Notes: generated by a model from the letters alone, not told the origin. Positions 1 to 54,937 are shown, numbered from the stretch's first letter. The stretch: DNA of 64,000 nucleotides from Candidatus Latescibacterota bacterium (GCA_965248355.1 OZ252098.1:160001-224000); one strand, 5' to 3'. Translations and numbers: made by a program.

Positions 1-861
1 TCCATCGAGCCTGTGGAGGCCCTGGACCTGAGCCTGGGGCGCTACCATGTCCGCGAGATGTGGGGACCGGGCGAGAACCGCGTCAACTACGCGCGCCTGA
101 ACTATCGGCGTACCCTCTTCCCCTATGCCTCGATCGACTTCTCCGACTTCCTCAAGCGGGTCCACGACGACATCGCCGACGATTCGCCCCAGTTCGGCTT
201 CTTCACGCCCCACGGGCTGCCGGTCGATCCCACCTCGATCGCGAGCGTCCGCGGTGTGACGGAGGTCGAAGACCCGCTGCTGATGAGGAACAGCGTCGTC
301 AACACGGCCCACCTCGACGCCACCTTCATCCGGGTGAAGGGCCTGGAGATCAACAGCCGCCTCAAGCACACGGTCAATCTCCAGCGTGCTTCCGTCCTTC
401 AGCCCGCCGACACGATCCAGGAATGGGCGTGGGTACTGCGCAGCGGCTACACCTGGAAGCGGGACCGGTGGACGGTCACGCCCAGGGCCAAGTACATGGC
501 CTACCGGCGCCGCGGCGGCGACGTGCAGGTCCATCCCGTTTCCGAACGCTACTTCTACCCCATGGTGGTGGCCACGGTGGCCCTGTCGCCCCAGACCAGC
601 CTGAGCGCGGGGGCCCAGGGTTTCCCGTTTCTGTCCAGCACCTACAGGAACCTGATCAACGACAAGGTCGACTACGGCAGCAGGGACTACATCGTCTCGA
701 TCACCAACCGCACCACGTACGAGGGCTACTACCTGACCCTGAACGCCGGATACCTCGCCAAGACGCTTCGATTCGAGGACAGGAGCCGGAAGCCGCTCGA
801 TATCGAGCGCTCGCTGCTCTATGTCCGGCTGCTGCTGGGACTGGAGCCCTTCGAAGGATGA
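1..861 (+). CDS. 5'-truncated putative outer-membrane beta-barrel protein (paralog of 858..3668 and 60771..63509)
   Basis: Frame is open from base 1. Amphipathic aromatic-rich strands. The C-terminal block (IVSITNRTTYEGYYLTLNAG...LYVRLLLGL) aligns with VVQLTNRSPYFGYNIATNLG...FLRVILGY of the next gene. Confidence 0.75.
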   Translation, partial: SIEPVEALDLSLGRYHVREMWGPGENRVNYARLNYRRTLFPYASIDFSDFLKRVHDDIADDSPQFGFFTPHGLPVDPTSIASVRGVTEVEDPLLMRNSVVNTAHLDATFIRVKGLEINSRLKHTVNLQRASVLQPADTIQEWAWVLRSGYTWKRDRWTVTPRAKYMAYRRRGGDVQVHPVSERYFYPMVVATVALSPQTSLSAGAQGFPFLSSTYRNLINDKVDYGSRDYIVSITNRTTYEGYYLTLNAGYLAKTLRFEDRSRKPLDIERSLLYVRLLLGLEPFEG

Positions 862-3668
862 GACGGGTGAGGCTTGCGGTCTGGACGCTGGTCTTCATGC
901 TGACCTGGGGGGACCCGGGTCGGGTGGGGGCCGAGGAGCCGCATCTGGGGTTCGCGCAGGACGTCTCCGGCCGCTCCTTCCTCTACCGGTCGGATCCCTC
1001 CTACCTGAACTACGGTTTCGAGGACTACGCGCTGCCGGAGTTCACGCGGTTCTCGCGGCGCAACTACTACGGTCCCCTGGGCAACTTCCTGATCCAGGGC
1101 TACGACGTGTACGAGTGGCGGGAGACGCGGTCGTCGGCGACGTCGGCATTGCCCAAGTCCTTCCGCACGATCCCCCGTTTCTCGCGCTTCGAGCGCAACC
1201 TGGTGGCCCGGGAGTCGCACGCGCGGTGGGCGGCGAGCCTGATCTACGGGGAGGAGATCCGCACGATGTTCACGCCGCTGACGCTGGCCTTGGCGGGGTA
1301 CGACGGCATCCGCCTGGACAGCCAGGTGGGCAACACGCGGGTGGCGGTCATCGGCCAGCGCTACACCGGGCCCTTCGCCGACAGCCGCTACGGCGGCGGT
1401 CCCACCTGGCACCACTGGGACTCCGCCGAAGAGATCCGCAGCTCGGCGATGCTTCTGGGGGCCCACGGCGATGTCGAGCTGGGGGCGCTGACCCTGGGGG
1501 CGACGGGGGTGAACTTCCACATCTTCGACGCGGAGCAGGAGCGCTTCGTTCTGCGCGGGGGGCTGCAGGCCGAGCAGGTGCTGCCGGTGGCCTACCTGGT
1601 GCGGTTCTCCGACGATACGCCGGAGGACCTGCAGGCCGGCGCCGTGGTCTCCGAGGTCCGTCTGAAGGTCAACGGGGAGGATCGGCCGGACCTGCGGCCG
1701 TTCCTGGCCCGGATCAACGGCCAGAACCCCACGGCGGTGGGCTCCACCAACCGGCTCACGGGTCAGTTCCGGCGCGTGGTCTACCTGGATCGGGGCACGC
1801 GCTTCGCGGACGTGCTCTACCTGCGCGATCACCTGCAGGGGGAGGACGTGTCGGAGAAGGTCAACCTGGAGGAGCTGCTGCGCTGGGTGGAGGCCCTGCC
1901 GGACGTTCCGGGGCTGCGGGCCGACGGCCACGAGCAGATCATCGCCGTCTTCGACGTGAGCCAGGAGCCCTTCATCCGCCAGGTGCAGGTGGAGGCGCTG
2001 GTGGGCAACGACTACCGGGTCGAGGTGCTGCCCCTCTTCGTCTCGGCCCCGGCGGTGGAGAACTACGAGTTCTACTACCGCGTCGGCGGCAATACCCTGG
2101 TGTCCACGAGCGGCTACCTGGAGAGAAAGGAGACGCCGGGCATCACCGCCGTCCGCCGGTCCCGGGGCAACGTGCAGGACATGTCGAACCTGGAGTGGGT
2201 GCGTCTGGATCTGGGGGAGTGGACGGGCCGGGCCCTGTGGGGTCTCGACGGGGCCTGGGAGTGGGGCGACGCCGAGGTGCGCTGGGAATACGCCCGCAAC
2301 GTGGAGTATCGGGAGTTTCCCGACGGCCGGCCGGGGCACCGCCAGGACCGGGAGGTCCGGGGGATCCGCCGCTGGAACGGGGCGCGCAGCAGCACGGGGG
2401 CGGGGGCCTGGTACGTGAACGGGCAGTGGCGCCGGGGCCGGATGGAGGTGGGCGGCGAGCTGTTCTCCATCGCCGAGGAGTACGACAGCGGCTTCGTGCA
2501 GGACAACGACGACGACGACCGCTATCCCGACATCGGCCACGGCCATCGGCCGAGTCCCCACTACACCACGATCCCCTACGACCCGGACGGGGTGTTTCCG
2601 GGCAACGACCGGGACAACGACCGGATTCCGGATACCAACCGCAACGGCAACCAGGTGCCCGACTACCTGGAAGCGTTCCTGCTGTACGACGTGGAGTCGG
2701 AGGCGTATGCCTATGGACGGGACGCCAACAACAACGGGATCCCCGACCACCGCGAGGACGACCTGGCTTCGGACTACCCCTACGAGCTGGACCAGCGCGG
2801 GCACCACCTCTTCGGGACGCTGCATCTGCCGGGCGGCTTCCGTCTCACGGCGGGCCGTCTGCAGGCCGGGGGGATCGTCGGCGGCGGCCGCAACGAGAGC
2901 ACCTACGGCGTGGCCAGCTTCCGCCGCCACAGCCCCCGGTGGGGCTCGGTCCGGGCGGAGACCCGCCTCCAGCGGCTCCATGATGACATCGTCGACAACT
3001 ACATCACCTACGGCGAGGTCCTGGGCGGGCACGAGTTCTGGCCCACCTACGCCCCCACCAGGGTGACGGATCAGTTGGAGTATCGCGACAGCCTGGACCG
3101 GCAGCACTACGTCGAGGCCGACCTCACCGCCGCCGGCGGTCTGCGCCTCGGCGGCAACCTGCGCTATGCGGTCAACGAGCAGCAGGAGGCGACCCTGGCC
3201 GGCGGCAGCGACCAGGCCGCCGACACCATCACCCGGCTGACGATGGTGGTCCGGGCCGAGTACGTGCGGGAGCTGTCGGACCGGTGGCAGCTGATCGCCC
3301 AGACCAAGGGGCTGGTGCTGCGCCGGACCCGGCAGAGCCTGGCCGTGGACCTGGCCAACGAGTGGACCTTCATACCGATCCTCAAGACGTCGTATCACAT
3401 CACGCCGCGTACCCACCTGTGGCTCGGCACCCAGGGGCTGCCGGGCCTGCCCCTGCGCAAGGAGGACCTGGCCGACGGCCGCGACAGCTACGAGGAGGTG
3501 GTGCGGGTGGTGCAGCTGACGAACCGGTCTCCCTACTTCGGGTACAACATCGCCACCAACCTGGGGGTGAAGTGGAACCGGCGCCACTTCGGCGATCCCG
3601 CCCGGCAGAGGAACGACCTCGAAATCACCTCCGCCTTCCTGCGCGTCATCCTGGGCTACGATGGGTGA
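858..3668 (+). CDS. Large secreted/outer-membrane protein (936 aa), unknown family, Asp-rich insert and beta-strand-rich C-terminus
   Basis: ATGA overlap with the upstream stop. Signal peptide MRRVRLAVWTLVFMLTWG. DNDDDDRYPD/DRDNDRIPD/DANNNGIPD repeats. The ORF-track start at 60 is a shadow extension. Confidence 0.8.
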   Translation: MRRVRLAVWTLVFMLTWGDPGRVGAEEPHLGFAQDVSGRSFLYRSDPSYLNYGFEDYALPEFTRFSRRNYYGPLGNFLIQGYDVYEWRETRSSATSALPKSFRTIPRFSRFERNLVARESHARWAASLIYGEEIRTMFTPLTLALAGYDGIRLDSQVGNTRVAVIGQRYTGPFADSRYGGGPTWHHWDSAEEIRSSAMLLGAHGDVELGALTLGATGVNFHIFDAEQERFVLRGGLQAEQVLPVAYLVRFSDDTPEDLQAGAVVSEVRLKVNGEDRPDLRPFLARINGQNPTAVGSTNRLTGQFRRVVYLDRGTRFADVLYLRDHLQGEDVSEKVNLEELLRWVEALPDVPGLRADGHEQIIAVFDVSQEPFIRQVQVEALVGNDYRVEVLPLFVSAPAVENYEFYYRVGGNTLVSTSGYLERKETPGITAVRRSRGNVQDMSNLEWVRLDLGEWTGRALWGLDGAWEWGDAEVRWEYARNVEYREFPDGRPGHRQDREVRGIRRWNGARSSTGAGAWYVNGQWRRGRMEVGGELFSIAEEYDSGFVQDNDDDDRYPDIGHGHRPSPHYTTIPYDPDGVFPGNDRDNDRIPDTNRNGNQVPDYLEAFLLYDVESEAYAYGRDANNNGIPDHREDDLASDYPYELDQRGHHLFGTLHLPGGFRLTAGRLQAGGIVGGGRNESTYGVASFRRHSPRWGSVRAETRLQRLHDDIVDNYITYGEVLGGHEFWPTYAPTRVTDQLEYRDSLDRQHYVEADLTAAGGLRLGGNLRYAVNEQQEATLAGGSDQAADTITRLTMVVRAEYVRELSDRWQLIAQTKGLVLRRTRQSLAVDLANEWTFIPILKTSYHITPRTHLWLGTQGLPGLPLRKEDLADGRDSYEEVVRVVQLTNRSPYFGYNIATNLGVKWNRRHFGDPARQRNDLEITSAFLRVILGYDG

Positions 3669-3747
3669 GATCTTCCTCCCGGTGGCGACAGGGCGGGCCG
3701 CAGCGGGGCGGCGCGTCTCAACCGCACGCAGTCCGAGGTAACAGCCC

Positions 3748-6700
3748 ATGGTTGCGTTGATCACCCTGGTAGGCCTGACGGCGATGATCGCCGTCACCCG
3801 GTCGGTGCCCACGGCTCCGGAGATGCAGGCGACCTTCGCCGACGCGCAGAAGTTCTACGCCTCGGGAGCCTACGACCAGGCGATCGAGGGCTATCGGCAC
3901 ATCATCCGGAGCGAGAGCCGTTTCCTGCAGATGAGGGACGTGGAGGTGACCGTCGGCGAGATCACGGCGCCGCTGCAGGAGGTGGCCCGGTACCAGACGG
4001 GCAATGCGTACTTCAAGTCCGCCGAAGAGGCCCTCGCCAGTGCGGCCAGGAGCCGCGACCCGGCACGGCGCTCCCGCTACCAGGACCGTGCCAGGTCGCT
4101 CTTCGGCGAGGCGGCCGCCGCCTTCGTGGAGACCGAGGACCTGTCGACCGTTCCCGTCCTGAAGGCCCTGGCACGCAGCCGCGCGGTGGCTTGCTGGTAC
4201 GCGATCCAGGACTACGGCCGCACCATCGAGGGGGCCAGCCTGCTCATCGAGCGCTATCCCTCCAGCGCCTATGTCGAGCAAGCCATGTACGATGTGGGCT
4301 GGGCCTACTATGACATGGAGGACTATGTCAACAGCATAACGTCCTTCGAGCGTCTCGTTGAGCGCTTTCCCGGCGGCTACCGCGGCAGCCGGGCCCTGTT
4401 CCAGATCGGCGAAGCCCACTTCGCGCTGGAGAACTTCGAAGAAGCCATCCCCTTCTACCAGCGGCTGGTCGACTCTCAGCGCATCGAGGAGATGTCGGAA
4501 CGCGAGATCCTGCTGATGAAGCGGCAGAAGATCGCCGGCCTCGTGGATGAGACGGCTCTCGACCTGGCGGCCAAGGCCCTCATCCGCGTCGGGGAGTGCC
4601 ACGAGAAGACGGGGCAGTATGCGCAGGCCGAGGAGGCCTTCCAGCTGGTGGCCTCCCGCTTTGCCGACGAGCAGCGGCTGGCCGAAGAGGCGTACTTGCG
4701 CCAGGCGGACATGCACTACCGGCGGGGGGATTTCGCTGCCGTGGTCGCCGTGTACGACCAGGCCATCGAGGCGACCGACGATGCGGTGCAGAAGGCGCGC
4801 ATGCAGCTCCTGCTGGCCAACCGCTACTTCGAGACCGAGCACTACGAGGAGGCGGTGCGTGCGTACGAGGTGTACCGGGCCAGCTACGAGGCCGCGGCCA
4901 CCCAGGCCGGCCTCCCGGTGGAGGGCGTGGCGCTGCAGATCGCCCGGGCCTGGTTCCGGGTGGCGGAGAAGCATCCGGAAGAGGAGCGTCTGGACTACTA
5001 TCGCCGGGCGGAGAGCGAGTTGCGCGCCACGCTGGCGGCGTATCCGGGATCACCCTACGACGTGGAGTTGCGGTTCAACCTGGGGCTGGCCCTTCAGTTG
5101 CAGGACCAGCAGGACAAGATGGACGAGGCCCTGGCCTTCCTGCGCAGCGTGGCCGAAGCCCCCAACGCCGAGGGGTACCGCCAGAGCGCCCTCTTCCAGA
5201 TCGCCCGGATCCACCATGGCCGCGGCGCCCACGCCAGGGCGGCCGAGACCTATCGCACGGTGATCGAAGAGCTGGAGGACAAGCCGGAACAGGATGTGGC
5301 CCGCTTCGAGCTGGGGATCGCGGAGAAGGACGCGGGAAACCGGGAGCGGGCCCTGACGGAGCTCCTGGCGGTCCGAAGGGAAGCGGCGCTGTTCGCCAGA
5401 TCACGCCTGGAGGCCGGGCAGCTCCTGGTGCAGCACGGAGAGCACCGCCGGGCGGCGGCGGTGCTGCAGGACGGCCTGGAGGCGAAGGACCCGCCGGAGA
5501 GGCAGGCTCTCCACTACCTGCTGGCCTCCGCCTCCATGCAGCTGGGAGAGAACGAGAACGCCCTGACGCACTTCGCCGCCGTCATCGACCAGGGCGAGCC
5601 CGACCTGCGGGAACGGGCGGCCTACAGCCGCGGCTCCCTGCTCTTCCGCCTGAAGCGATACGGTGAGGCCGTCGAGGATCTGGCCTGGGACTGGAGCGCC
5701 CCGGCGCTGGCCACTTCGGCCCGGCGCCTCCTGGCGGCAGCCTACGCCAACCTCGGCCAGTTCGACCGCGCCCAGGACATCTACCGGCAGATGGCGCACG
5801 CGGCGACCGGCCCCCTCGAACGCGCGGAGCACCTGCTGGCGGAGGCGGAGATCGCCAACCGGCAGGGCCGCTACGCCGAGGCCTTCGCCGCCTGCGAGGA
5901 GATCATCGGGCTGGATTGGAAGGAGGACTCCCTCCCGGAGGAACGGCCGTACCACCTGCGCGAGAAGGCCTGGTTCCTGCAGGCGGAGTCTGCGGTGCGA
6001 ACAGAGGACTTCACGCGGGCCTTCGACCGGGCCGACGCGGGTCTGCGGGCCTTCCCGACGGGCTTCTACGCCGCCGACCTCCTGTTCCTGCGCGGCCTGG
6101 CGGCCCTCCAGACCGACCGGGCCGACCTGGCCGTCCCCAGCCTCGGCCGGATGATCTCCGAACACCCCGACCATCCCAACGCCGGGTACGCGCACTACTA
6201 CCTGGCCTACGCGCACTTCAACAAGGCCCGCTTCAGCAAGGCCGTCCCCTTCTTCCAAAGGGTGGTGGACCAGTACCCGGATCTGGATGTGGCCGCCGAT
6301 GCCCTCTTCCGTCTGGCCGAGTGCCGCTACAACTCGGGGGCTTACGCCGAGGCCAGAGAGACCTACCGGCGGGTGATCCGGCGCTTCCCCGACACCGGGC
6401 TGGCCGAGGACGCCCTCTACAACATCGCCTGGTGCCTGCTCAACGAGGCGCCTGCGGAACCTTCGGCGGAGCACCAGGCCGCGGTGCGACAGGCCATGGA
6501 GGAATACCTGACCCGCTATCCCGGGGGACGCCGCGTTCCCACGGCCAGGTATACCTTGGCCGAGATGAGCTACAACGCCGGCGACTACGACCAGGCCTAC
6601 GGGTTGTTCCAGGGACTCCAGGCCGACTTCCCGGAATCCGAGGCGGCCCGGGAAGCCGAGGGGGTGATTCTGGACCTGCAGGAGGCCGTCGCCTTTCGGG

Positions 6701-6999
6701 AGTACAGCGGCGCCATGGAGGCCTTCAACCGGGCCCTGGCGGAAGACGACCTCGACTTGGTCCGTGAGGCCATCGGGCCCCTCGAAGCCGTGTGGCGGCA
6801 GTACCCGATGACCTCCAGCGGCCTGGCGGCGAAGATGAACGTGGGGGTTGGCTATCAGCAGCTGAGGGAATGGCGGAAGGCCGTGGATGCCTTCAGCGAT
6901 GTCATCGCCCAGGGAGAACAGGGCAACGTCCAGGTGACGATCCGGATGATGGAGTTCTGTCAAGGGCGTCGTCACACCATCGAGAGGAAGCACCTGTGA
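3748..6999 (+). CDS. Large tetratricopeptide-repeat protein (1083 aa) with BamD/YbgF-like TPRs and N-terminal signal/TM
   Basis: GAGG upstream of ATG. Repeated 'YP.S....ALF.IG..Y' TPR units (RFPGGYRGSRALFQIGEAHF, QYPDLDVAADALFRLAECRY). Confidence 0.9.
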   Translation: MVALITLVGLTAMIAVTRSVPTAPEMQATFADAQKFYASGAYDQAIEGYRHIIRSESRFLQMRDVEVTVGEITAPLQEVARYQTGNAYFKSAEEALASAARSRDPARRSRYQDRARSLFGEAAAAFVETEDLSTVPVLKALARSRAVACWYAIQDYGRTIEGASLLIERYPSSAYVEQAMYDVGWAYYDMEDYVNSITSFERLVERFPGGYRGSRALFQIGEAHFALENFEEAIPFYQRLVDSQRIEEMSEREILLMKRQKIAGLVDETALDLAAKALIRVGECHEKTGQYAQAEEAFQLVASRFADEQRLAEEAYLRQADMHYRRGDFAAVVAVYDQAIEATDDAVQKARMQLLLANRYFETEHYEEAVRAYEVYRASYEAAATQAGLPVEGVALQIARAWFRVAEKHPEEERLDYYRRAESELRATLAAYPGSPYDVELRFNLGLALQLQDQQDKMDEALAFLRSVAEAPNAEGYRQSALFQIARIHHGRGAHARAAETYRTVIEELEDKPEQDVARFELGIAEKDAGNRERALTELLAVRREAALFARSRLEAGQLLVQHGEHRRAAAVLQDGLEAKDPPERQALHYLLASASMQLGENENALTHFAAVIDQGEPDLRERAAYSRGSLLFRLKRYGEAVEDLAWDWSAPALATSARRLLAAAYANLGQFDRAQDIYRQMAHAATGPLERAEHLLAEAEIANRQGRYAEAFAACEEIIGLDWKEDSLPEERPYHLREKAWFLQAESAVRTEDFTRAFDRADAGLRAFPTGFYAADLLFLRGLAALQTDRADLAVPSLGRMISEHPDHPNAGYAHYYLAYAHFNKARFSKAVPFFQRVVDQYPDLDVAADALFRLAECRYNSGAYAEARETYRRVIRRFPDTGLAEDALYNIAWCLLNEAPAEPSAEHQAAVRQAMEEYLTRYPGGRRVPTARYTLAEMSYNAGDYDQAYGLFQGLQADFPESEAAREAEGVILDLQEAVAFREYSGAMEAFNRALAEDDLDLVREAIGPLEAVWRQYPMTSSGLAAKMNVGVGYQQLREWRKAVDAFSDVIAQGEQGNVQVTIRMMEFCQGRRHTIERKHL

Positions 7000-8228
7000 G
7001 CCCTCGGCAGAGCGGGTCCCTGACGGTCCTGTCGCGCAATCGGCGCCTCTTCCATGCCGGTCTGGCGGCCTCGGTGGCGCTCCACGCGCTGGCCCTCTCG
7101 CTCTACCTGTTGCCCCAGGTAGAGGAAGAGGAGGAGGTGGTGGCCCGCATCGAGTGGGACGAGGAGAAGACCCCCTTCTTCCTGCCAGAGCCGCAGCTGA
7201 CGCGCGAGTTCGCCTTCAGGAAGGAGGCCGTTCCCGAGGGCATCCCCGTCGTTCGCTCCAGCGGCGACCGCACGACAACCACGGTCAGGGGGCGGCGCAT
7301 GGTGGGCGGAGCGGGCATGCCGGTGGGCACGCGCATGTGGAGCAGGACGGGGGGAAGCGCGGAGTTCACGGTTGCCACGGGCACTGGCCTGGGCGACGCC
7401 GTGGTGGCCATGCCGCGGTTCGAGGCGGTCAGCATCGCCAGCATGAAGGAGCCCGAGAGACGGATCGACATGCAGGCGGAGTTCCTGGACCTGTCGGCCA
7501 TCAACACCGGCCGGTACAAGGGGATGGTGATCCAGGACCCAACGGACAAGACCAACGTCACCGGCTTCGTCTACCTGGCGCGCGCCTGGGGGACCATCCT
7601 CGAGCCGTCGCGGCCCCGGGCGCTGCTCCAGCTGGCCCGCTGGATCAACAACTGGACCCGGATCGAGGCCAAGGTGGACGAGCAGATGTACCTCGACTCC
7701 CAGGCCCTTTTCAAGGCGCCCTTCGTGTACATCACTACCGGGTCGGCCTTCGAGCTGACCAAGCACGAGGCGGCCAACCTGGGGAAGTACCTGCGCAACG
7801 GCGGCTTCGTGCTGGCGGACAACGACGCTCCGCGCCTGGAATACGGACCTGCCGAGGCCTCGATCAAGGCCATGTTCAAGCAGGCCCTGGGGCGGGATGC
7901 CCGCTTGGTACCGTTGCGAAACGACAACCCCATCTACCGCGTCTTCTTCGATTTCGACGGCGGCCCCCCCCTGGGCGGGGAGGTGCTCAACACGTCCAAC
8001 CAATACGCGGCTACCCGCCGACCTTCCTACTGGCTGGAGGGCATCTACCTCCGGGACCGGCTGGTGGCCGTCTACTCGGACAAGGGCTACGGAGCGCTCT
8101 GGGAACGGGAGACGGAGAATGAGCCCCAGCTGAAGCTCGGCGTCAACCTGGTGGTCTTCGCCCTCACCCAGAAGGGCTCCATCGCGCAGCAGCAGATCGA
8201 CTTCTACAACCAGGCCGGCCGCCAATGA
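6996..8228 (+). CDS. DUF4159-domain protein with N-terminal TonB-like TM anchor
   Basis: GTGA overlap at 6996-6999. TM AASVALHALALSLYLL. C-terminal PFVYITTGSAFELT...LGKYLRNGGFVLADN...LKLGVNLVVFALT is typical of DUF4159. Confidence 0.75.
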   Translation: MSPRQSGSLTVLSRNRRLFHAGLAASVALHALALSLYLLPQVEEEEEVVARIEWDEEKTPFFLPEPQLTREFAFRKEAVPEGIPVVRSSGDRTTTTVRGRRMVGGAGMPVGTRMWSRTGGSAEFTVATGTGLGDAVVAMPRFEAVSIASMKEPERRIDMQAEFLDLSAINTGRYKGMVIQDPTDKTNVTGFVYLARAWGTILEPSRPRALLQLARWINNWTRIEAKVDEQMYLDSQALFKAPFVYITTGSAFELTKHEAANLGKYLRNGGFVLADNDAPRLEYGPAEASIKAMFKQALGRDARLVPLRNDNPIYRVFFDFDGGPPLGGEVLNTSNQYAATRRPSYWLEGIYLRDRLVAVYSDKGYGALWERETENEPQLKLGVNLVVFALTQKGSIAQQQIDFYNQAGRQ

Positions 8229-8262
8229 CCCGGCCTCCTCGAAGGGGGGTGCTCCAACGACC

Positions 8263-9510
8263 ATGAGACACTTCTGCCGAAGCCTCCCGGCGCCACTTCT
8301 GGCCGTCCTCGTGCCGGCCCTTCTCAGTTGCAGCGTCATCTACCCGCCGATCTATCAGCGTACCTCCTCGCTCACTCCACGTGGGGACCAGGGAGACAGC
8401 TACTCGGTCGGAGAGGGGAGCACCGTCTCCTATGGGCTGGAGGGCCTGCGGATCGACGTCGAGCACATGACCGACAAGGAGTTGAACGACCTCTTCCCGG
8501 CCGAGTCCGGCCTGGGCGAGTACTCGACGAATCCCTACACCCATGGCGACTACATCGACCCGGCCGTCGGCTACGTGCGCAACCGGTTCACCGTCTTCCG
8601 GGTCACCGTGCACAACTACTCCTTCGCCAAGGTCGAGCTGCAGCCGCTGCGATCGTTCCTGACCACCGACCGGCCCGGAGAGCTCCTCGAGCCGTACGGT
8701 GTCCTGGCCGGTTCGTCGCCGAGGAACTTCGAGTCCTACTACCGGAGTCTGAGGGGACCCAGCGGCAACGAGTACTACCGATTCAACATGCGCATGGGTC
8801 TCGTGCGGACCAACAACTACGGCGTAGGGGAGCGGATCTTCCGGGGCGAGGAATACGGGGGATTCGTCGTCTTCGATCCACTGGACTCCGAGGTCGAGCG
8901 GGTCCGGTTCAACCTGAGGGACTTCGTCCTCAAGTTCAACACCTTCGGCAAGCCGCTGGAGACGATCGACATCGGTTTCGACTTCGACCGTCAGATCGAG
9001 GTGGCGGCCTACCAGGAGCAGCGGAGGGTCGCCTCCAGGGAGGTGTCGCGCGCCGACCTGAGGCCGGGCACCCGGGTGATCGGGAACGTCACGGGGGACA
9101 TCACGCGGGACGTGACCGCCGTCGAGGCCCACATCAAGTCCCGCCTGGACGAACTCAACCAGTGCTTTGCGCGGGAGTCCATTGCCGGCCGGGCCTCCGA
9201 AGGGGAGGTCTCGGTCAGGTTCGTCATCCTGCCTCCCGGGGGGGTCGAGGAGGCGAAGGTGCTCTCCTCGACGGTGGTCAGCGGGGCCGTGGGCGAGTGC
9301 ATCGCGGCCCGGATCGGCGGTTGGCGCTTCCGCCCCTCGGGCGGCCCCATGAGGGGAGAGGGCGCTGCGGCAGACACGGCGGAGGCGGGCCAGCCCGGTG
9401 GCCGGCCGGCGCCGGGTCTGGTCTCGCAGGTCATGCAGGGGCTGTCCGCGCGAGTGACGGTGGACTGCACCCTCGAATTCATCGACACACGCTCCGAGAC
9501 CGCGTTCTGA
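8263..9510 (+). CDS. Lipoprotein with C-terminal TonB-C/AgmX-PglI-like domain
   Basis: Lipobox ALLSC. C-terminal ELNQCF...EGEVSVRFVILPPGGVEEAKVLSS...VGECIAARIGGWRF. Confidence 0.7.
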   Translation: MRHFCRSLPAPLLAVLVPALLSCSVIYPPIYQRTSSLTPRGDQGDSYSVGEGSTVSYGLEGLRIDVEHMTDKELNDLFPAESGLGEYSTNPYTHGDYIDPAVGYVRNRFTVFRVTVHNYSFAKVELQPLRSFLTTDRPGELLEPYGVLAGSSPRNFESYYRSLRGPSGNEYYRFNMRMGLVRTNNYGVGERIFRGEEYGGFVVFDPLDSEVERVRFNLRDFVLKFNTFGKPLETIDIGFDFDRQIEVAAYQEQRRVASREVSRADLRPGTRVIGNVTGDITRDVTAVEAHIKSRLDELNQCFARESIAGRASEGEVSVRFVILPPGGVEEAKVLSSTVVSGAVGECIAARIGGWRFRPSGGPMRGEGAAADTAEAGQPGGRPAPGLVSQVMQGLSARVTVDCTLEFIDTRSETAF

Positions 9511-9512
9511 CC

Positions 9513-10355
9513 ATGCCTTCGGTGGCAAGCAGGATGGGAATGCTGGTCTTGGGGACCCTCGGACTGGGCTGCGGCGCGCAAGAGGGGGGCGTGGGGGACG
9601 CGGGCGGCCGCCCCCTTCTGGTGGCGGAGCTGCCGGGCGGCGTGGAGATGGAGTTCGTGCGGATCGACTCCGGCGCTTTCCTCAGGGGCTCCCCCGTTAC
9701 GGAGCCGGGGAGGGACGCGGACGAGAGCCCTCTCAGGGAAGTGAGGATTTCCGGACCCTTCCATCTGGGGCGCACCGAGATCACCCAGGCCCAGTGGGAG
9801 GCCGTCATGGGCAGCCGGCCGTGGGCAGGCCTGGACTTCGTGCAGGAGGGGCCGGAGTACCCGGCCGTGAACGTCTCCTGGCACGAGGTGCAGGGGTTCG
9901 CGGCCAGGATGAACACCTTGGCCGGTGCGGACCTCTACCGTCTCCCTACCGAGGCGGAGTGGGAGTACGCCTGCCGGGCCGGGACCACGACACGCTGGTC
10001 CTTCGGCGACGACCCGTCGATGCTGGGCGACTACGCCTGGCACACGGGCAACACCTGGGACGCGGGAGAGCGCTACGCCCACGCTGTGGCTACCCGGAGT
10101 CCCAATCCGTGGGGGCTCCACGACATGCATGGAAATGTGAGCGAGTGGGCACAGGACTGGTACGTCGCCGACTACTATGGCCATGCCTCTCCCACGGATC
10201 CCCAGGGCCCGGTCACCGGTGAGCAGCGGGTCTATCGTGGCGGGTACTTCCACCACAACGGGGTTCGGCGTCTGCGTTCGGCCAACCGCTTCTTTGCGTG
10301 GCCGCAGGCTCGTGCCGCCTCTGTCGGGGCCCGCCTGTTCCGGAGCAGTCCCTGA
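9513..10355 (+). CDS. FGE-sulfatase (SUMF1-like) domain lipoprotein
   Basis: LGLGC lipobox. RLPTEAEWEYACRAG, PNPWGLHDMHGNVSEW and RVYRGG motifs. Confidence 0.9.
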   Translation: MPSVASRMGMLVLGTLGLGCGAQEGGVGDAGGRPLLVAELPGGVEMEFVRIDSGAFLRGSPVTEPGRDADESPLREVRISGPFHLGRTEITQAQWEAVMGSRPWAGLDFVQEGPEYPAVNVSWHEVQGFAARMNTLAGADLYRLPTEAEWEYACRAGTTTRWSFGDDPSMLGDYAWHTGNTWDAGERYAHAVATRSPNPWGLHDMHGNVSEWAQDWYVADYYGHASPTDPQGPVTGEQRVYRGGYFHHNGVRRLRSANRFFAWPQARAASVGARLFRSSP

Positions 10356-10362
10356 TTCCGCC

Positions 10363-13300
10363 ATGGCGTCGCAGATGCGGTCGTGGACGTCGAAGCTGGC
10401 GGCCGTCGCTCTGGGCTTCGGCATCCTGGCGGCTGCAGAGGCAGGGCTGCGGCTCACGAACGCCGGAGGGCCGCCGTCGTTCCTGGTGACCTTGTCCGAG
10501 CACGGGGGGCAGCGGTTGCGCAGCGTCAACCCGTCGTACCCGAAGCGATACTTCCTCGATCGCCACCAGGGCCAACTCATCGCCAGGGGGCGCATGGATG
10601 CCCACCCCTTCCTTGAACCCGCGTCCCCCGGCTGCTTCCGGGTCGCCTTCGTGGGCGCTTCCACGGTAAGGGGCTTTCCCCATCCCCGCTCCCTGTCGGC
10701 CGCCGCTTTCGTGGAAGCCATGCTGGCGGACGCCTGGCCCGGACGAGATGTGCAAGTCTTCAATCTGGGCATCCCTGCCCTGGCCAGCTTCGCGGTGGCC
10801 CAGGTGCTGGAGGACGCCATGGGGCTGGAGCCCGACCTGGTGGTGGTCTACGCGGGGCACAACGAGTACTACGGCATCGACGGCGCGGTCGACCAGTGGG
10901 GTCCCCTGCGCAATCGCCTCCGCCACGCCCTGGTGGAGGGCCGCATCCCCTGGATGATGTACGCTCTGCGTGATCGCGTCCTCGGCACGGAGGTCACCGG
11001 TGCCGACCTGATCCAGGTGCTGGGTGAGCGCGGCTCGCTATCGCCTGGAGACCATCGCCGGCAGTCGGCTCCGGCCTACCTTGGTGACAATCTCTCCCGC
11101 ATGGCCGGGATCTGCCGGAGTGCACAGGTTCCCGTGATCCTGTGCACCCTGGCTGCCAACGATGCCGGCTTCGCCCCCGCCGGCTCCGAGAGCCCGGGGC
11201 TGCCCGCCGAGGAGCTCTCCCTCTGGCAGGGAGGGCTCGTATTGGCCGCCGAGGCGCTGCTCCAGGATGCGGTCAGCCCCGAGGCGGCCGCCGAGGCCCT
11301 GGCCCGGATCGAGGGCGCCGAAGCCCTGGAGGTCCGCAGCGCGTGGCTGCAGTACCTGAAAGGGCGGGCCCTTCTGGAGCTCGGCGACGCAGGCAAGGCG
11401 CGCTCCGCCTTCGCCATGGCCCGCGAGTTGGACACCATGCCCTGGCGCGCCCCCGAAAGCCACAACCGGGCCATTCGCGCGGCGGCCGGGGAGAGCGGCG
11501 CGGTGCTGGCCGATGTGGCCCACGCCTTCGCGGAGGTTGCGCCGCCGGAGGGCGTGGGCTGGGGACTGATGGTCGACCACGTACATCCCTCCATCGCCGG
11601 GCAGCTCCTGATGGCCCGCACCATCGCGGCCGCCATATCCCAGGTCCCGGCTGCCACCGTGCCCCCCGTGGACGCCCGACGTCTCCGGGGGGATGAGGAG
11701 TACCGGCGGCTCCTGGGCGACGTTCCGGTGCTGCGGTGGCAGGTGGACCACAACATGGCCGAGCTCCTGGCGAGCCCTCCCCTGGACCGCTACAACGCCC
11801 ATAACGCCATCCGTTTCCAGCGTTTGGCCGCACAGGGCTGGCGGCAGCTGACCAGGGCAGAGCAGCAGGGGGTCATCGGGCCCACGCGGCATCCGGTAGA
11901 CGTTCCGCTGGTCCTGAAGGTGGCGGACCGGCTCTTCGCCGCCGAGGACATGTCCCGGGCCCGGATCTACTACGCCGCATCCCGGCGCCAGGCCCCCTTT
12001 GCGGCAGTGGGAGACCTGTGGGCGGCCGCGCGGTGGGCTCAAGCCATACGGCGGTCGGGGCGCGACCTGACGCCGGTGGAGCAGGCGCGCCTGGAGGAGT
12101 GCCTGGCGCGTCTGCCCTTTGTCGTTCCGGCGCCGGAGCTCGACTCGTCTTTCATGGCAAGGGTCGAGAGGCAGCTGAAGGACCTGTTGGGACGCCCCCA
12201 ACAGGCGCCGCAAGGGCTTGGGTACCAGCCCGCCGTGGGCGACCGTGTTTCCCTACGGTCGCCACAGAGTCGCGGCGAGGTAGCGCTCGCTCTCGGGCCG
12301 GTCGCAGAAATAGTAGACCGTCACCACGGTGCCGTCCGGCCGCTGCACGGTACGGGGGTAGCCGATATCGTGGCATCCGGCGCGGTCGCGCAGCACGATG
12401 GGCTCTCCCCACGTGGTCCCTTCGTCCTCGCTCAACCGGGCGTGAATCTGGTGGGGTGCATCGCGGTATCCGCAGATCAGGCACAGGCGGCCGTCGTGGA
12501 GCCGGTTGAGGGTGGGGGGATTGCCTCCTGTTCCCGTGTTCTCCACGGGGCGGTTCATCAGGGCCCAGGTGAGTCCCTCGTCATTGGAAGCGTAGAGGTC
12601 GATCCAGTTGCGGTCCGGGCCCGCATCCTCGGGGCCGCGGCAGCGCACGGCGACCAGCAGGCGAGATGGCGAGATCCGCAGACTTGCGGGCATGATGCTG
12701 AAGCCCTCGGGCTCGCGGCCGATCCACGCCCGCAGAGGAAAGGTGCGCCCGCCGTCGTCGGTGCGCGCACAGAACACGCGTCCCTCCCTTCCGTCGGCCT
12801 TGGTGGCCGTCAGGAAGAGGGTGCAGGTGAGCCCATTGTCGACGAGGTAGTCCGTGCGTGCTTCCACGCCCGTGGGGCTGTACATGGGGAGACGGAAGGG
12901 TCCCTGCCACGAGGCACACCGATCGGTGGAGGTGTAGAAGAACGAGACGGTGCCTGCGTCCAGTCCCGTCTTGGCGCACATGAGGGCGAAGTCGGGATGG
13001 GAGAAGTCGATGCCGCCGGGAGACTCGGCCAGCAGGTTCTGTGCGCCGAGGGCTTCGCCCACGCGCAGGCCTGCGGTCATATGCTCGTCGGCGGACAGGC
13101 CGCGGCCTCCGGGCGTTCGGCACGGGGTCGGCTCCGCGGTCCACGTGACGCCGCCGTCGCGGCTGCGGGCCTGCATGCTGACGAAGGGCCGCGAGCGATC
13201 CCGCGCGTGAAAGCCGCCATCGGTGTCGTGGTAGCCGAGGGTGAAGCCGACGACGATCTCGTCGCCCCACGACCAGATGCCGTAGTTGGCGGGCCAGCCG

Positions 13301-13365
13301 GCGTAGCGCCCGGGCTCGCGGTAGATGACGACGTGCTTCATTTGCGCCAAGCCAGATGCTCGTGA
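10363..13365 (+). CDS. SGNH/GDSL hydrolase-like membrane-anchored protein with TPR; recognisable part ends near 12200 and the ORF continues antisense to the sialidase-like gene
   Basis: VAFVGASTVRG (Ser block), YAGHNE and DHVHP (DxxH). No stop until 13363-13365. Confidence 0.7.
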   Translation: MASQMRSWTSKLAAVALGFGILAAAEAGLRLTNAGGPPSFLVTLSEHGGQRLRSVNPSYPKRYFLDRHQGQLIARGRMDAHPFLEPASPGCFRVAFVGASTVRGFPHPRSLSAAAFVEAMLADAWPGRDVQVFNLGIPALASFAVAQVLEDAMGLEPDLVVVYAGHNEYYGIDGAVDQWGPLRNRLRHALVEGRIPWMMYALRDRVLGTEVTGADLIQVLGERGSLSPGDHRRQSAPAYLGDNLSRMAGICRSAQVPVILCTLAANDAGFAPAGSESPGLPAEELSLWQGGLVLAAEALLQDAVSPEAAAEALARIEGAEALEVRSAWLQYLKGRALLELGDAGKARSAFAMARELDTMPWRAPESHNRAIRAAAGESGAVLADVAHAFAEVAPPEGVGWGLMVDHVHPSIAGQLLMARTIAAAISQVPAATVPPVDARRLRGDEEYRRLLGDVPVLRWQVDHNMAELLASPPLDRYNAHNAIRFQRLAAQGWRQLTRAEQQGVIGPTRHPVDVPLVLKVADRLFAAEDMSRARIYYAASRRQAPFAAVGDLWAAARWAQAIRRSGRDLTPVEQARLEECLARLPFVVPAPELDSSFMARVERQLKDLLGRPQQAPQGLGYQPAVGDRVSLRSPQSRGEVALALGPVAEIVDRHHGAVRPLHGTGVADIVASGAVAQHDGLSPRGPFVLAQPGVNLVGCIAVSADQAQAAVVEPVEGGGIASCSRVLHGAVHQGPGESLVIGSVEVDPVAVRARILGAAAAHGDQQARWRDPQTCGHDAEALGLAADPRPQRKGAPAVVGARTEHASLPSVGLGGRQEEGAGEPIVDEVVRACFHARGAVHGETEGSLPRGTPIGGGVEERDGACVQSRLGAHEGEVGMGEVDAAGRLGQQVLCAEGFAHAQACGHMLVGGQAAASGRSARGRLRGPRDAAVAAAGLHADEGPRAIPRVKAAIGVVVAEGEADDDLVAPRPDAVVGGPAGVAPGLAVDDDVLHLRQARCS
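12183..12205. terminator. Possible hairpin between convergent SGNH and sialidase-like coding regions
   Basis: CCTGTTGGG-acgcc-CCCAACAGG is a perfect 9-bp inverted repeat. No U-tract. Confidence 0.3.
12253..13341 (-). CDS. BNR/Asp-box repeat sialidase-family (exo-alpha-sialidase-like) protein, no signal peptide
   Basis: Asp-boxes SRDGGVTW, STDRCASW, TDDGGRTF, SNDEGLTW, SEDEGTTW; DIGYP near the C-terminus. Confidence 0.85.
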   Translation of the reverse strand: MKHVVIYREPGRYAGWPANYGIWSWGDEIVVGFTLGYHDTDGGFHARDRSRPFVSMQARSRDGGVTWTAEPTPCRTPGGRGLSADEHMTAGLRVGEALGAQNLLAESPGGIDFSHPDFALMCAKTGLDAGTVSFFYTSTDRCASWQGPFRLPMYSPTGVEARTDYLVDNGLTCTLFLTATKADGREGRVFCARTDDGGRTFPLRAWIGREPEGFSIMPASLRISPSRLLVAVRCRGPEDAGPDRNWIDLYASNDEGLTWALMNRPVENTGTGGNPPTLNRLHDGRLCLICGYRDAPHQIHARLSEDEGTTWGEPIVLRDRAGCHDIGYPRTVQRPDGTVVTVYYFCDRPESERYLAATLWRP

Positions 13366-14768
13366 GCTGTCCATGGTGCAGTGAATGGGTCCTGTGGCTG
13401 CTGGCCGCCGTGGCCGGAGGCACGGCCTGGCTGGTGGGACGGAGCGGGGCTGAGGGCATCGCCCGGCCCATGGGCTGGGGGTCCTTCGTCCTGTTCACCA
13501 TGGGGGCCGGCTTCTGGATGTTCAGCGATACGTACGCCTACTACTACGCCGAGAAGGAGTCGGCCCTGCGCTTTGCCTACTGGGGCTCCTATCGCGAGCA
13601 CCAGATGTGGGGAGAGATCATCCAGGCCTTCAGGCAGCGCTACCCGGAGATCGGCGTCAAGCGGGAGTACATCACGGACCGCTACAGCGAGAAGATCCAG
13701 CAGCTGTTGCTGGCCGACGAGGCGCCGGACGTCATGATGTTCCAGGACGAGCCCTTCCCGCGCTTTGTCTCCAGCGGCAAGTTCGAGGCCCTCGATGCGT
13801 ACTGCCGGCAACCGGACCGGCCGCTGGACCTGGAGAACCACTTCTTCAAGACCTCGGTGCCCCACTTCCAGGTGGATGGCCGGACCTATGGGATCCCGGT
13901 GTTCGGCGGCAACTGCCTGATTCTCTACAACCGCGATGCCTTCCGGGAGGCCGGGTTGCCGGAGCCGCCGGATCGCTGGACCATGGATGAGTTCCTTGCC
14001 ACCTGCCAACGCATCACCGCGGACACCAACGCCGATGGCAGGATGGACCGGTACGCTTTCCTGGTTCCCTCCTGGGTCTACTGGATGCCCTTCCACTTCG
14101 CCTACGGCGGCCGGTACCTCGACCGGACGCGGCGCCACTGGCGCCTGTGGGGCCCCGAGGCCGAGACCTCCTTCGCCTTCTGGCAGGATCTGCGTCATCG
14201 TCACCACGTGGCGCCCCACCGGGACGAACTGGGGGAGACCGGCGGGGTGGCCTTCATGACGGGTCGAGTGGCGATGCAGGTGAACGGGCCGTGGGCGATG
14301 CCGCCGCTCAACGCGGCCGGGGTGAGCTACGATGTGGCCCACACACCGTCCGGTCCGGGGGGGCGGGCCACCCGGGTGACGTGGGACGCGCTGGTGATGT
14401 TCGGCGGATCCCGGAAGAAGGACCAGGCCTGGAAGTTCATCCACTTCGCCCTCGGTCTCGAGGCCCAGGAGATCGTGGCCCGGTACCAGCGCTCGATTCC
14501 CGCCCTCAAGGCGGCCGGACAGGCCTTCATCGACGCCAACCCGGAGGTTCGTGCCGGACGGTTCATCGAGGCCCTCGAGTACTCGCGCTTCCAGCCGATC
14601 ACGGCGAACTGGGCCCTCATGTCCCGGGAGGTGTCCAGCGAGACCGACCTGATGCTCGATGACCGGCAGACGCCGCGCCAGACCCTGCTGGACCTGGTGC
14701 GCAACGTGCACCTGTCCGAGCGATTCATCATGCCCCAGGCGGGATCGGCCGGGGAGACCGGCCGGTAA
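13356..14768 (+). CDS. Sugar ABC transporter substrate-binding protein (CUT1 type), start uncertain
   Basis: APDVMMF, YGIP...LYNRDAFREAG, FMTGRVAMQVNGPW. Directly precedes two permeases. Confidence 0.88.
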   Translation: MLVSCPWCSEWVLWLLAAVAGGTAWLVGRSGAEGIARPMGWGSFVLFTMGAGFWMFSDTYAYYYAEKESALRFAYWGSYREHQMWGEIIQAFRQRYPEIGVKREYITDRYSEKIQQLLLADEAPDVMMFQDEPFPRFVSSGKFEALDAYCRQPDRPLDLENHFFKTSVPHFQVDGRTYGIPVFGGNCLILYNRDAFREAGLPEPPDRWTMDEFLATCQRITADTNADGRMDRYAFLVPSWVYWMPFHFAYGGRYLDRTRRHWRLWGPEAETSFAFWQDLRHRHHVAPHRDELGETGGVAFMTGRVAMQVNGPWAMPPLNAAGVSYDVAHTPSGPGGRATRVTWDALVMFGGSRKKDQAWKFIHFALGLEAQEIVARYQRSIPALKAAGQAFIDANPEVRAGRFIEALEYSRFQPITANWALMSREVSSETDLMLDDRQTPRQTLLDLVRNVHLSERFIMPQAGSAGETGR

Positions 14769-16605: not shown

Positions 16606-17298
16606 ATGGAACTGATCAGCGAGCTGTGGAACGCGATGGCCTTCACCGGCAAGACGGTGGTGGTCGTGCTGGCCGTGCTCTCCATCTACTCCTACGCCGT
16701 GATGATCGACCGGGCCCTGGCCCTGCGCTGGGCGCGCGAGAGGTCGGAGGCGCTGGCTGCGGAGTTCGAGGCTGTCATCGACCACAGTGTCGATGTGGGA
16801 GAGCTGAGCAACCATGTGCAGCAGGCCGTGGAGGCGGGTCACAATCCGCTGGGCACGGTGCTGCAGGGGGCCCTGAAGGAGTACGTCATGCTCACAGGTG
16901 AAGAGGAGTCCCACGAGTTGGTGACGGAGGGGGTGGAAGTCGAGGTGGGCCGCGGACTGGACGTGGCCGTGGCCAACCTGCGAGTGCGCTTGCCCGGCAT
17001 GGCCACGATTGTGGGCGTGGCACCGTTCCTGGGGCTCTTCGGAACGGTCACGGGACTGATCTCGGCCTTCAGGGGGATCGCCACCGGCGGCGGCGGGGGA
17101 CTGGCGGCGGTCTCCGCCGGCATCTCGGAGGCGCTGGTGACCACCGTCATCGGCCTCTTCGTAGCCATGCCGGCCCTGTGGGCCTACAACGTCTTCATGC
17201 ACCGGGTGGACAACCTGGCCATCGGGCTTCACAACTCCGCCTCCCGCCTCACGGGCCACTGTGTCCGTCGATTGCTCCGCGCCAGCCGGGCGGCCTGA
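16606..17298 (+). CDS. exbB: MotA/TolQ/ExbB proton-channel family protein
   Basis: APFLGLFGTVTGLISAF and GISEALVTTVIGLFVAMPA motifs. Confidence 0.93.
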   Translation: MELISELWNAMAFTGKTVVVVLAVLSIYSYAVMIDRALALRWARERSEALAAEFEAVIDHSVDVGELSNHVQQAVEAGHNPLGTVLQGALKEYVMLTGEEESHELVTEGVEVEVGRGLDVAVANLRVRLPGMATIVGVAPFLGLFGTVTGLISAFRGIATGGGGGLAAVSAGISEALVTTVIGLFVAMPALWAYNVFMHRVDNLAIGLHNSASRLTGHCVRRLLRASRAA

Positions 17299-17313
17299 AG
17301 GGAGGCCCGGGCG

Positions 17314-17754: not shown

Positions 17755-17755
17755 C

Positions 17756-54936: not shown

Positions 54937-54937
54937 G

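Follow-up and report, generated by a model that had tools for sequence, protein, structure and literature searches.

Our analysis of a 64,000-nucleotide stretch of DNA from Candidatus Latescibacterota bacterium (hereafter the window; G000:C1:160001-224000 of a 5.5-Mb single-contig genome, OZ252098.1) reveals that positions 1-10355 carry the 3′ two-thirds of a gene cassette for large predicted outer-membrane barrels, a giant tetratricopeptide repeat (TPR) protein, a membrane-anchored DUF4159 protein that we call the connector, and a lipoprotein. The cassette is real, conserved and multi-copy, with at least seven copies in this genome (K1-K7, the copy at positions 1-10355 being K1), and both its outer-membrane family and the head of its connector are undescribed. 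We favor a model, to which we assign a probability of about 0.5, in which the cassette would specify a Ton-like, proton-driven trans-envelope apparatus for the energized capture or uptake of glycans. The two parts of this model differ in strength: K1 is likely to be a motor-coupled trans-envelope apparatus, while glycan uptake as the job of the cassette falls somewhat short of an even chance.

Since the window is ~70% GC, genes were called from GC content at third codon positions (GC3) together with translations. Positions 1-10355 are filled by six plus-strand genes, and the packed, co-directional set that a first-pass annotation of this DNA had described there was borne out for all six by GC3, translation and domain scans. 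The genes encode the C-terminal 286 residues of barrel paralogue B (1..861; cut by the window start, 903 residues in the genome), the 936-residue barrel paralogue C with a signal peptide (858..3668, in the GC3 frame), a 1083-residue TPR protein with an N-terminal hydrophobic helix (3748..6999), the 410-residue connector, whose GTG start overlaps the preceding stop (6996..8228; PF13709, E 1.5e-27), a 415-residue lipoprotein with lipobox LLSC and a TonB-C-like tail (8263..9510; NF033768), and a 280-residue lipoprotein of the FGE/SUMF1 fold with lipobox GLGC (9513..10355; PF03781, E 1.7e-41).

The first four and a half genes of K1 lie upstream of the window. Outside the window we relied on our own gene calls and on all-against-all clustering, in which F0 is the barrel family and F1 a family of surface proteins. 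The first upstream gene encodes a 615-residue F1 protein with a type IX secretion system (T9SS) type A sorting domain (TIGR04183; 26.3 bits, cut-off 23), and its paralogue in K3 scores 37.1 bits against the same cut-off. The second encodes a 673-residue F1 protein that carries a discoidin (F5/8 type C) domain and ends in a CHU_C tail just under threshold (26.6 bits, cut-off 27). Barrel A and most of barrel B follow.

A profile of the barrel family matched 52 stretches of the genome, which correspond to ~29 open reading frames (ORFs), many in tandem triplets. The gene order F1-F1-F0-F0-F0-TPR-DUF4159-lipoprotein is complete at K1-K5 and rearranged or degraded at K6 and K7. In a tree of 18 barrel paralogues from this genome, positions A, B and C formed three clades, with the gene at 1..861 in the B clade, and each clade had the topology (K1,K2),(K3,(K4,K5)) with supports of 0.94-1.0. 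Because the three clades share the topology of the cassettes, the A/B/C triplet is older than the cassette duplications, and whole cassettes were duplicated. On this phylogeny, barrels A, B and C are non-redundant types. The earlier proposal that the genes belong together was upheld, as the order recurs in the seven or more copies of this genome and in other Latescibacterota genomes, where the complete order was found at no fewer than 7 of 73 loci.

Membership of the FGE-fold lipoprotein did not survive this comparison. At first pass it had been counted among the parts of the machine, with the remark that GldK and GldJ are SUMF1-fold lipoproteins too. None of the six further cassettes in this genome carries the gene, and the protein scores 73.9 bits with the GldK model (cut-off 350) and 33 with the GldJ model (cut-off 458). 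Elsewhere, an FGE gene lies 3′ of the lipoprotein gene at L020 and L021, and 62% homologues occur at L036 and L039. The FGE gene is an accessory gene of the K1 copy.

We characterized the fold of the barrel family on barrel C, which is paralogous to barrel B (28% identity over 279 residues, E 3e-29). An AlphaFold2 model of the 936-residue protein, run on a 93-row alignment, had a mean predicted local distance difference test score (pLDDT) of 84.5 and a predicted template modeling score of 0.84. It contained ~26 long strands, at residues 77-224, 454-538 and 646-934, with an inserted mixed domain at ~245-445 and an Asp-rich loop or coil at ~540-645. Foldseek returned 171 matches in the PDB at E ≤ 0.001, led by MtrB (2e-9) and SlpA (3.2e-9) and extending to OmpG, LptD, TonB-dependent transporters, SusC-type transporters and ushers; the TM-scores were low, at 0.13-0.25 (0.17-0.19 for SlpA). 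After re-alignment with VIA, the best match was the SlpA complex (7zgx_A; Z 16.4, root-mean-square deviation 8.4, 418 residues aligned), followed among other barrels by AlgE (Z 14.7), OccK (14.4), FimD (13.7) and BtuB (13.2). All structural matches listed are membrane beta-barrels, nearly all of them from bacterial outer membranes, to which VIA adds mitochondrial Tom40 and VDAC. These results agree with the initial description of the ~900-residue proteins as barrel-like, as opposed to soluble enzymes, and the model indicates that the 936-residue protein is a large outer-membrane beta-barrel of an undescribed family.

The likeness to SlpA, the outer-membrane barrel in the S-layer deinoxanthin-binding complex of Deinococcus radiodurans (7zgx, 8ae1, 8agd), has limits. 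Although it is the best structural match of barrel C, AlgE, OccK, FimD and MtrB lie within ~2-3 Z units of it, no SLH domain or coiled-coil stalk was detected in barrel C, and the sequence likeness covers ~100 residues and is below threshold. A coupling analysis of 310-345 barrel sequences (effective number ~200), an earlier run of which was dominated by gap artefacts, gave 19 antiparallel versus 6 parallel stripe peaks and is superseded by the AlphaFold2 model. A count of hydrophobic alternation was discarded as a barrel test, since it did not distinguish a TPR control from the barrel. Of 313 barrel sequences, 94 have a C-terminal strand with the conserved pattern h-x-h-x-h-G-aromatic and 63 end in an aromatic residue, a resemblance to the beta-signal that is no more than suggestive.

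Searches by sequence gave few matches outside the family. Barrels B and C matched no Pfam or NCBIfam family, and searches of the PDB with the single sequence and with a profile yielded nothing useful. None of 45 distant representatives reached any Pfam threshold. The sole recurrent weak Pfam match was SlpA_C (PF21620), found in 10 of 43 relatives (best 27.3 bits, cut-off 35); the window barrel lacked it, and one match in this genome scored 16.9 bits. A word-indexed search of 5.8 billion proteins retrieved 51 relatives, all unnamed or "hypothetical," one of them from a Latescibacterota metagenome-assembled genome (MAG). An exhaustive profile search defined a family of 841 clusters at 50% identity. 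A second homologue search, made with an alignment, contributed almost nothing further. Neither Pfam and NCBIfam nor the source records listed give the family a name.

Within the phylum, the barrel family was found in 106 of 168 genomes. It is present in 75 of 75 genomes of f1, the taxonomic family of the window, and in all sampled genomes of f5-f13 but one (5 of 6 in f12); it was not found in f2 (0 of 3), f3 (0 of 22), f4 (0 of 31) or f14 (0 of 5). The families with the barrel are also those in which the connector has strong, full-length matches in several copies, with f2, f3, f4 and f14 giving only single weak matches (~1e-16 to 1e-24). The barrel and the full-length DUF4159 type therefore co-occur in related genomes, which is what the grouping of these genes at first pass had implied. 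The titled records with members of the barrel family come from Latescibacterota MAGs, some of them labeled Gemmatimonadaceae, Gemmatimonadetes or "uncultured bacterium." As far as sequence records go, the cassette is specific to Latescibacterota. We also hand-picked 20 connector loci on long contigs of other genomes and scanned the neighborhood within 8 kb; a lipoprotein gene was present at 18, a giant TPR gene at 17, a barrel gene at 16 and ExbB/ExbD genes at 6.

The connector (6996..8228) has a basic N terminus, one hydrophobic helix with an S-x3-H motif, an acidic, Pro-containing linker and a DUF4159 head. It ends in DUF4159, not in a TonB C-terminal domain. To survey the anchor, we divided 113 full-length homologues into the 50 closest and 63 more distant. 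Among the 50 closest, the helix contained His in 50 and S-x3-H in 49, whereas His makes up 1.5% of residues overall. In the window helix, the other two SHLS residues, Leu and the second Ser, are out of register. The profile of the connector matched an uncharacterized PDB entry, 4i66 (E 6e-13), and Pfam assigns only DUF4159 to the head, with no vWA match. The adjacent 1083-residue protein matched 18 TPR-type Pfam families and YfiO, as well as YbgF/CpoB-type (TIGR02795, 182 bits) and BamD-type repeats in NCBIfam, and it has paralogues in other cassettes of the genome.

The tail of the 415-residue lipoprotein (8263..9510) matched the AgmX/PglI C-terminal domain (NF033768; 53 bits, cut-off 40, E 2.8e-14), with weaker matches to the GltG tail and to TonB-C, and the lipobox Cys of the protein is retained in all 33 sequences compared. 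In an AlphaFold2 model (pLDDT 80), the N-terminal domain is an immunoglobulin-like beta-sandwich that resembles the Bacillus lipoproteins YcdA (Z 8.4) and YjhA (Z 7.7), with middling scores. The C-terminal domain aligned with entire TonB/TolA-type C-terminal domains, those of H. pylori TonB (Z 7.2; 89 residues of a 92-residue chain), N. meningitidis (Z 7.1; all 83 chain residues) and E. coli (Z 6.7), and Foldseek returned 7zc8 at probability 1.0. By this model, the tail has a TonB C-terminal fold. As K1 carries the helix and His anchor on the DUF4159 protein and the TonB-C fold on the neighboring lipoprotein, the two ends of TonB are split over two proteins in this copy. A complex prediction for the connector head (residues 150-410) with the lipoprotein N-terminal domain (24-250) scored 0.00, which speaks neither way.

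Short forms of the lipoprotein, without the TonB-C tail, occur in K3, K5 and elsewhere. Connectors with S-x3-H paired with the long lipoprotein form in 10 of 10 cases, while those without S-x3-H paired with 11 long and 6 short forms. An exclusive link between S-x3-H and the long form was ruled out by these 11 pairs.

An ExbB gene and two ExbD genes on the plus strand 6 kb downstream of the cassette, reported at first pass, were confirmed by domain scans. They encode a 230-residue ExbB/TolQ-type subunit (16606..17298; PF01618, E 4.4e-27) and two ExbD/TolR-type subunits (17314..17754, PF02472, E 1.9e-21; 17756..18148, PF02472, E 6.7e-15). The ExbB protein scores below cut-off with both the tolQ model (132 bits versus 221) and the exbB model (93 versus 206). 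Cassette and motor do not form one uninterrupted operon, as a BNR-repeat gene on the minus strand (12253..13374) separates the cassette from ExbB/ExbD.

Other copies clarify the relationship between cassette and motor. ExbB/ExbD genes directly adjoin the DUF4159 gene in K3, K4, K5 and K7, and 5 of the 7 ExbB loci and 7 of the 10 DUF4159 loci of the genome lie within cassettes. One ExbB set outside the cassettes adjoins the single canonical TonB-C gene of the genome, in the order ExbB-ExbD-ExbD-TonB. The other encodes an ExbB 58% identical to that of the window and is found at a distance of 13 kb from K2, to which K1 is sister. The ExbB lineages (K1 with the K2-linked copy; K3, K4 and K5; K7) mirror the cassette lineages, and in each of five other genomes K1/K2-type cassettes lie near the homologues closest to the window ExbB, at ~4, 4, 6, 6, 15 and 23 kb. 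ExbB-ExbD-ExbD at 16606-18148 is thus the probable motor of K1. More generally, gene linkage and the anchor motif make the predicted coupling of the cassette to a Ton/Tol-type motor well supported.

The surroundings of the cassettes point to glycans. Discoidin domains occur in the F1 proteins, and beside several cassettes we found CBM9 proteins, a GlcNAc 2-epimerase family gene, FG-GAP/ASPIC proteins and DUF6785/DUF6784 membrane proteins. A DUF4838 gene lies upstream of K1, and the window itself contains a BNR protein, a GDSL-like hydrolase and a sugar ATP-binding cassette (ABC) importer. An F1 gene is directly upstream of 31 of 71 barrel arrays. We scanned 25 genes that lie just upstream of barrel genes without a recognizable F1 gene. 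Five were hydrolase- or lyase-like (pectate lyase/glycoside hydrolase-like, BNR, melibiase C-domain, GH116 and GH38), and others encoded FG-GAP/ASPIC proteins (2), a DUF6785 protein (1), gamma-glutamyltranspeptidases (2), regulators (2) and other enzymes (3).

A model that accommodates these data is that a proton motor of the ExbB5-ExbD2 type acts on the DUF4159 protein through the helix that bears the His; in K1, this motor would be the ExbB-ExbD-ExbD set 6 kb downstream. Force or a conformational change would then cross the periplasm, where TPR protein and lipoprotein would act as a scaffold or an adaptor, and would be received by the A/B/C barrel set in the outer membrane. Glycans bound by the F1 surface proteins could in this way be captured and taken up at the expense of energy. 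We infer both that the cassette proteins form one physical complex and what its cargo would be. Substrate-specific capture or uptake is favored because the neighborhoods are glycan-related and the copies are many and divergent. If surface-bound glycans are taken up, the system would work like a Sus/TonB-dependent utilization locus with unrelated outer-membrane parts.

Several observations weigh against this model. Since the convergent BNR gene lies between them, the motor is outside the transcription unit of K1, and an ABC transporter is encoded in the same interval. At the 20 connector loci of other genomes, ExbB/ExbD was within 8 kb in only 6. Conservation of the anchor is also restricted: among the 63 more distant DUF4159 homologues, the helix contains His in 33 and S-x3-H in 3, and S-x3-H is missing from the K3, K4 and K5 paralogues. 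In Pfam and NCBIfam scans, the barrels had no plug or TonB-box family match and neither PF07715 nor PF00593, and hhalign of the barrel profile with 17 TonB-dependent receptors of the same genome gave a probability of 0.05. A second uptake system is not required, because the genome also encodes ~20 TonB-dependent receptors of the canonical type, together with a canonical ExbB-ExbD-ExbD-TonB set. The link to glycans is likewise incomplete: no F1 gene was recognizable directly upstream of 40 of 71 barrel arrays, and of the 25 upstream genes scanned, 10 had no family and several others were unrelated to glycans.

Comparison with the Ton system illustrates both sides. The cassette shares with it motor genes of the ExbB and ExbD families, an anchor that crosses the membrane once, carries S-x3-H and continues into a linker, a TonB C-terminal fold, and large outer-membrane barrels near carbohydrate-binding surface proteins and glycan-processing genes. 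It differs in that the anchor ends in DUF4159 and the TonB-C fold is on a separate lipoprotein, and in that the barrels come as fixed A/B/C triplets without a match to a plug family or to the TonB-dependent transporter family, whose members appear only among many other barrels in the structural matches. The locus does not have the composition of the Tol-Pal system: TolA, TolB and Pal are not among the genes after ExbD and the tolQ model is under cut-off; a partial likeness is the CpoB/YbgF-type repeats, but these are inside the 1083-residue TPR protein.

The connector resembles the vWA-headed force transducers (PMC12204202), in which a membrane helix bearing the Ser and His of the SHLS type is joined by a disordered linker to a globular head other than that of TonB. 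The Ser/His helix, linker and globular head are shared by the DUF4159 protein, as is synteny with TPR, tolQ-like and two tolR-like genes, direct in K3, K4, K5 and K7 and at 6 kb in K1. The head, however, is DUF4159 with no Pfam vWA match. The phyla listed in the sections of that paper used here are Proteobacteria, Planctomycetes, Verrucomicrobia, Bacteroidetes and Rhodothermaeota, not Latescibacterota; DUF4159 and Latescibacteria are absent from the main text of the paper, and no outer-membrane barrel partner is described in the same sections (PMC12204202).

By analogy of parts, the Agl-Glt machinery is as close an architectural parallel as the polysaccharide utilization loci. In the portions of its description used here, three outer-membrane barrels (GltA, GltB and GltH) hold the adhesin, GltD is a central periplasmic pillar, GltG and GltJ have domains like the TonB C-terminal domain, and the TolQ/TolR-type motor has two different TolR-like subunits (PMC11761067); the cassette likewise combines three barrels and surface proteins, a large periplasmic repeat protein, a TonB C-terminal-like domain and a motor with two ExbD/TolR types. 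The Agl-Glt-like parts list proposed at first pass is therefore sound as architecture but not as sequence homology beyond the TonB-C/AgmX-type tail. If the resemblance extended to function, the cassette would encode an Agl-Glt/Nfs-like machine whose motor moves or exposes two surface adhesins on a three-barrel platform, for gliding, adhesion or surface-polymer transport rather than import. We consider this unlikely. The three non-redundant barrels, giant TPR protein, AgmX/PglI-type tail, two different ExbD genes and T9SS-tailed surface proteins are all consistent with it, and the paralogous K3 copy carries a DUF4340 gene, of a family that accompanies gliding-associated ABC transporter genes. 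However, the sole sequence link to Glt is the C-terminal tail (GltG model, 35.2 bits versus 650), which is on a lipoprotein and not on a membrane-spanning protein, and no Glt model matched the barrel or the TPR protein in the NCBIfam scan, the one source of Glt models compared. The cassette barrels are ~900 residues long and SlpA-like, whereas GltA, GltB and GltH are much smaller; we saw no genes for a cytoplasmic platform in the cassettes; and the presence of at least seven divergent copies per genome in glycan-related neighborhoods, with solo barrels beside glycoside hydrolases, fits substrate-specific uptake better.

The sorting domains of the upstream F1 proteins raise the further possibility, which we judge improbable, of a T9SS-type secretion or anchoring module in which the barrels are cargo-specific partners of the F1 proteins and ExbB/ExbD and DUF4159 provide energy where GldL/GldM were not found. 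In this the barrels would be comparable to PorP/SprF-type proteins, which are outer-membrane partners of type B T9SS cargo. Cargo genes followed by barrel genes are a recurring arrangement, the first F1 protein has a type A sorting domain over cut-off in K1 and K3, and the genome contains SprA, a PorV/PorQ-like gene in K7 and the FGE-fold lipoprotein of K1, with no GldK over cut-off and no gldLMN beside the best GldK-like gene. The GldM model (TIGR03517) also found no match, but this silence is inconclusive because the model matched none of the control genomes either, and GldL was not searched for. Moreover, the cassette motor is of the ExbB/ExbD and not the GldL/GldM type, and the barrels belong to neither the SprA nor the PorV family. 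Since ~117 ORFs match the F1 profile (mostly via the sorting domain) compared to ~29 barrel ORFs, most F1-type cargo would lack a barrel partner, and the 40 of 71 barrel arrays without a recognizable F1 gene directly upstream argue in the same direction. It is also conceivable, but very unlikely, that these are co-inherited envelope proteins that do not use the motor, with DUF4159, TPR protein and lipoprotein acting in barrel assembly or tethering and the motor serving Ton or an unrelated process. The convergent gene between K1 and the motor, the 14 of 20 sampled loci without ExbB/ExbD within 8 kb and the resemblance of the TPR protein to BamD and CpoB repeats would all be accounted for. Such a separation is difficult to reconcile with ExbB/ExbD adjoining DUF4159 in four copies of this genome and in 6 sampled loci elsewhere, with ExbB lineages that track cassette lineages, with retention of the TonB-type His in the anchor, and with a canonical TonB that has its own ExbB-ExbD-ExbD elsewhere.

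Few systems are known that spend energy at the outer membrane, namely Ton, Tol-Pal, Agl-Glt, T9SS and gliding. A Ton-like apparatus for glycan capture or uptake would add to these a connector with a new head domain, DUF4159, and a new family of outer-membrane partners. More tentatively, and with considerable doubt, we suggest that the cassette represents a second form of outer-membrane transport driven by the proton-motive force, without TonB-dependent transporters, in which fixed A/B/C sets of ~26-strand SlpA-like barrels would be gated by dedicated ExbB/ExbD through a "split TonB" and served by T9SS-displayed carbohydrate binders. If so, the cassettes would be the Latescibacterota counterpart of the polysaccharide utilization loci of Bacteroidota. 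Because it is multi-copy and located among glycan-related genes, the cassette may explain polysaccharide uptake by this widespread, uncultured phylum, and the paralogous sets of motor, connector and barrel offer a natural series in which the pairing of 5:2 motors with their targets could be studied. In a full-text literature search, DUF4159 came up in the Pfam database paper alone, and nothing was found that combined "Latescibacter" with "type IX secretion." Porins, ABC importers and canonical TonB uptake are predicted in the 2015 genome paper on Latescibacteria, which in the sections used here describes no such cassette.

RNA libraries contained sequences from several of these genes. Contigs of ~170-390 nt in libraries X18 and X19, from one study, were 95-100% alike to barrel, TPR, lipoprotein, permease, ExbB and ExbD genes, and pieces of 43-126 nt in library X20, from another study, fell on barrel, DUF4159, FGE, lipoprotein and ExbD genes. 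As RNA libraries can hold DNA and the contigs give neither strand nor level, these matches are a weak hint of expression only. A scan for promoters and terminators gave 0 promoters and 9 terminator-like sites, all within genes, versus 5.4 expected.

The window also contains part of K7. The cluster at 50-64 kb had been thought at first pass to supply paralogous barrels and cargo to K1. Instead, an independent second cassette with its own motor genes begins at 56457. On the plus strand, it encodes an F1 surface protein with a C-terminal T9SS-type sorting region (56457..58268; CHU_C, 28.7 bits, with FlgD_ig and F5/8 type C domains), a second F1 surface protein (58312..60771; FlgD_ig, E 5e-10, and F5/8 type C) and an F0 barrel-family member (60771..63509). 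Beyond the window end, K7 continues with another barrel, a lipoprotein, a PorV/PorQ-like protein (77.6 bits, cut-off 90), a TPR protein, ExbB, ExbD and DUF4159. Directly upstream of K7, at 53407-56455, are two tandem paralogous lipoproteins with leucine-rich repeats and PD40 (WD40-like) beta-propeller repeats.

The remaining copies vary in content. Between the connector and TPR genes, K3 has extra genes for a DUF4340 protein, a second TPR protein of 415 residues, a DUF5683-like small protein and a small lipoprotein (L013:17270-18610, 13448-13987), and K5 shares the last two. The cassette is modular. At the position that ExbB-ExbD-ExbD occupies in K3, a K3-type cassette of another genome has a 501-residue polytopic membrane protein (L111:9267-10769). 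K6 (L018, G000:C1:2462001-2477000) looks degraded or rearranged; its barrel-family ORFs are only 418 and 471 residues long, in a different gene order. A solo barrel gene on the opposite strand upstream of the window, adjoining a DUF4838 gene (L011:2499-5294 (-), equal to G000:C1:147499-150294), is a very recent duplicate of barrel C (tree branch lengths 0.07-0.09).

The C-terminal ends of the barrels differ between groups. Distant homologues from family f10 (L121-L125, 40-50% GC) end exactly in ...L-G-W or ...L-G-Y, the classical outer-membrane beta-signal, while members of the window's group have 1-6 additional residues beyond the corresponding strand. Apparent in-frame stops in the f10 barrel genes proved to be ordinary terminal stops.

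Between the FGE gene and the motor lie a GDSL-like ORF, the convergent BNR-repeat gene, and genes for a sugar-type ABC binding protein and two permeases. The frame of the GDSL-like ORF is open from 10177 to 13365 (+), but GC3 is of coding type only to ~12200, and its 3′ part is antisense to the BNR-repeat gene at 12253-13374 (-), which carries the coding signal there. For the 3′ end of the GDSL gene, possibilities include a missing stop, truncation of the gene and an indel in the assembly. On the other side of the motor, no TonB-like gene follows ExbB-ExbD-ExbD. The ~400 bases 3′ of the second ExbD gene (18145-18550) lack coding-type GC3 despite two ORFs of 123-132 residues; past 18550, the window encodes a 274-residue secreted protein without a family and then a 1434-residue TamB-like protein (19394-23698).

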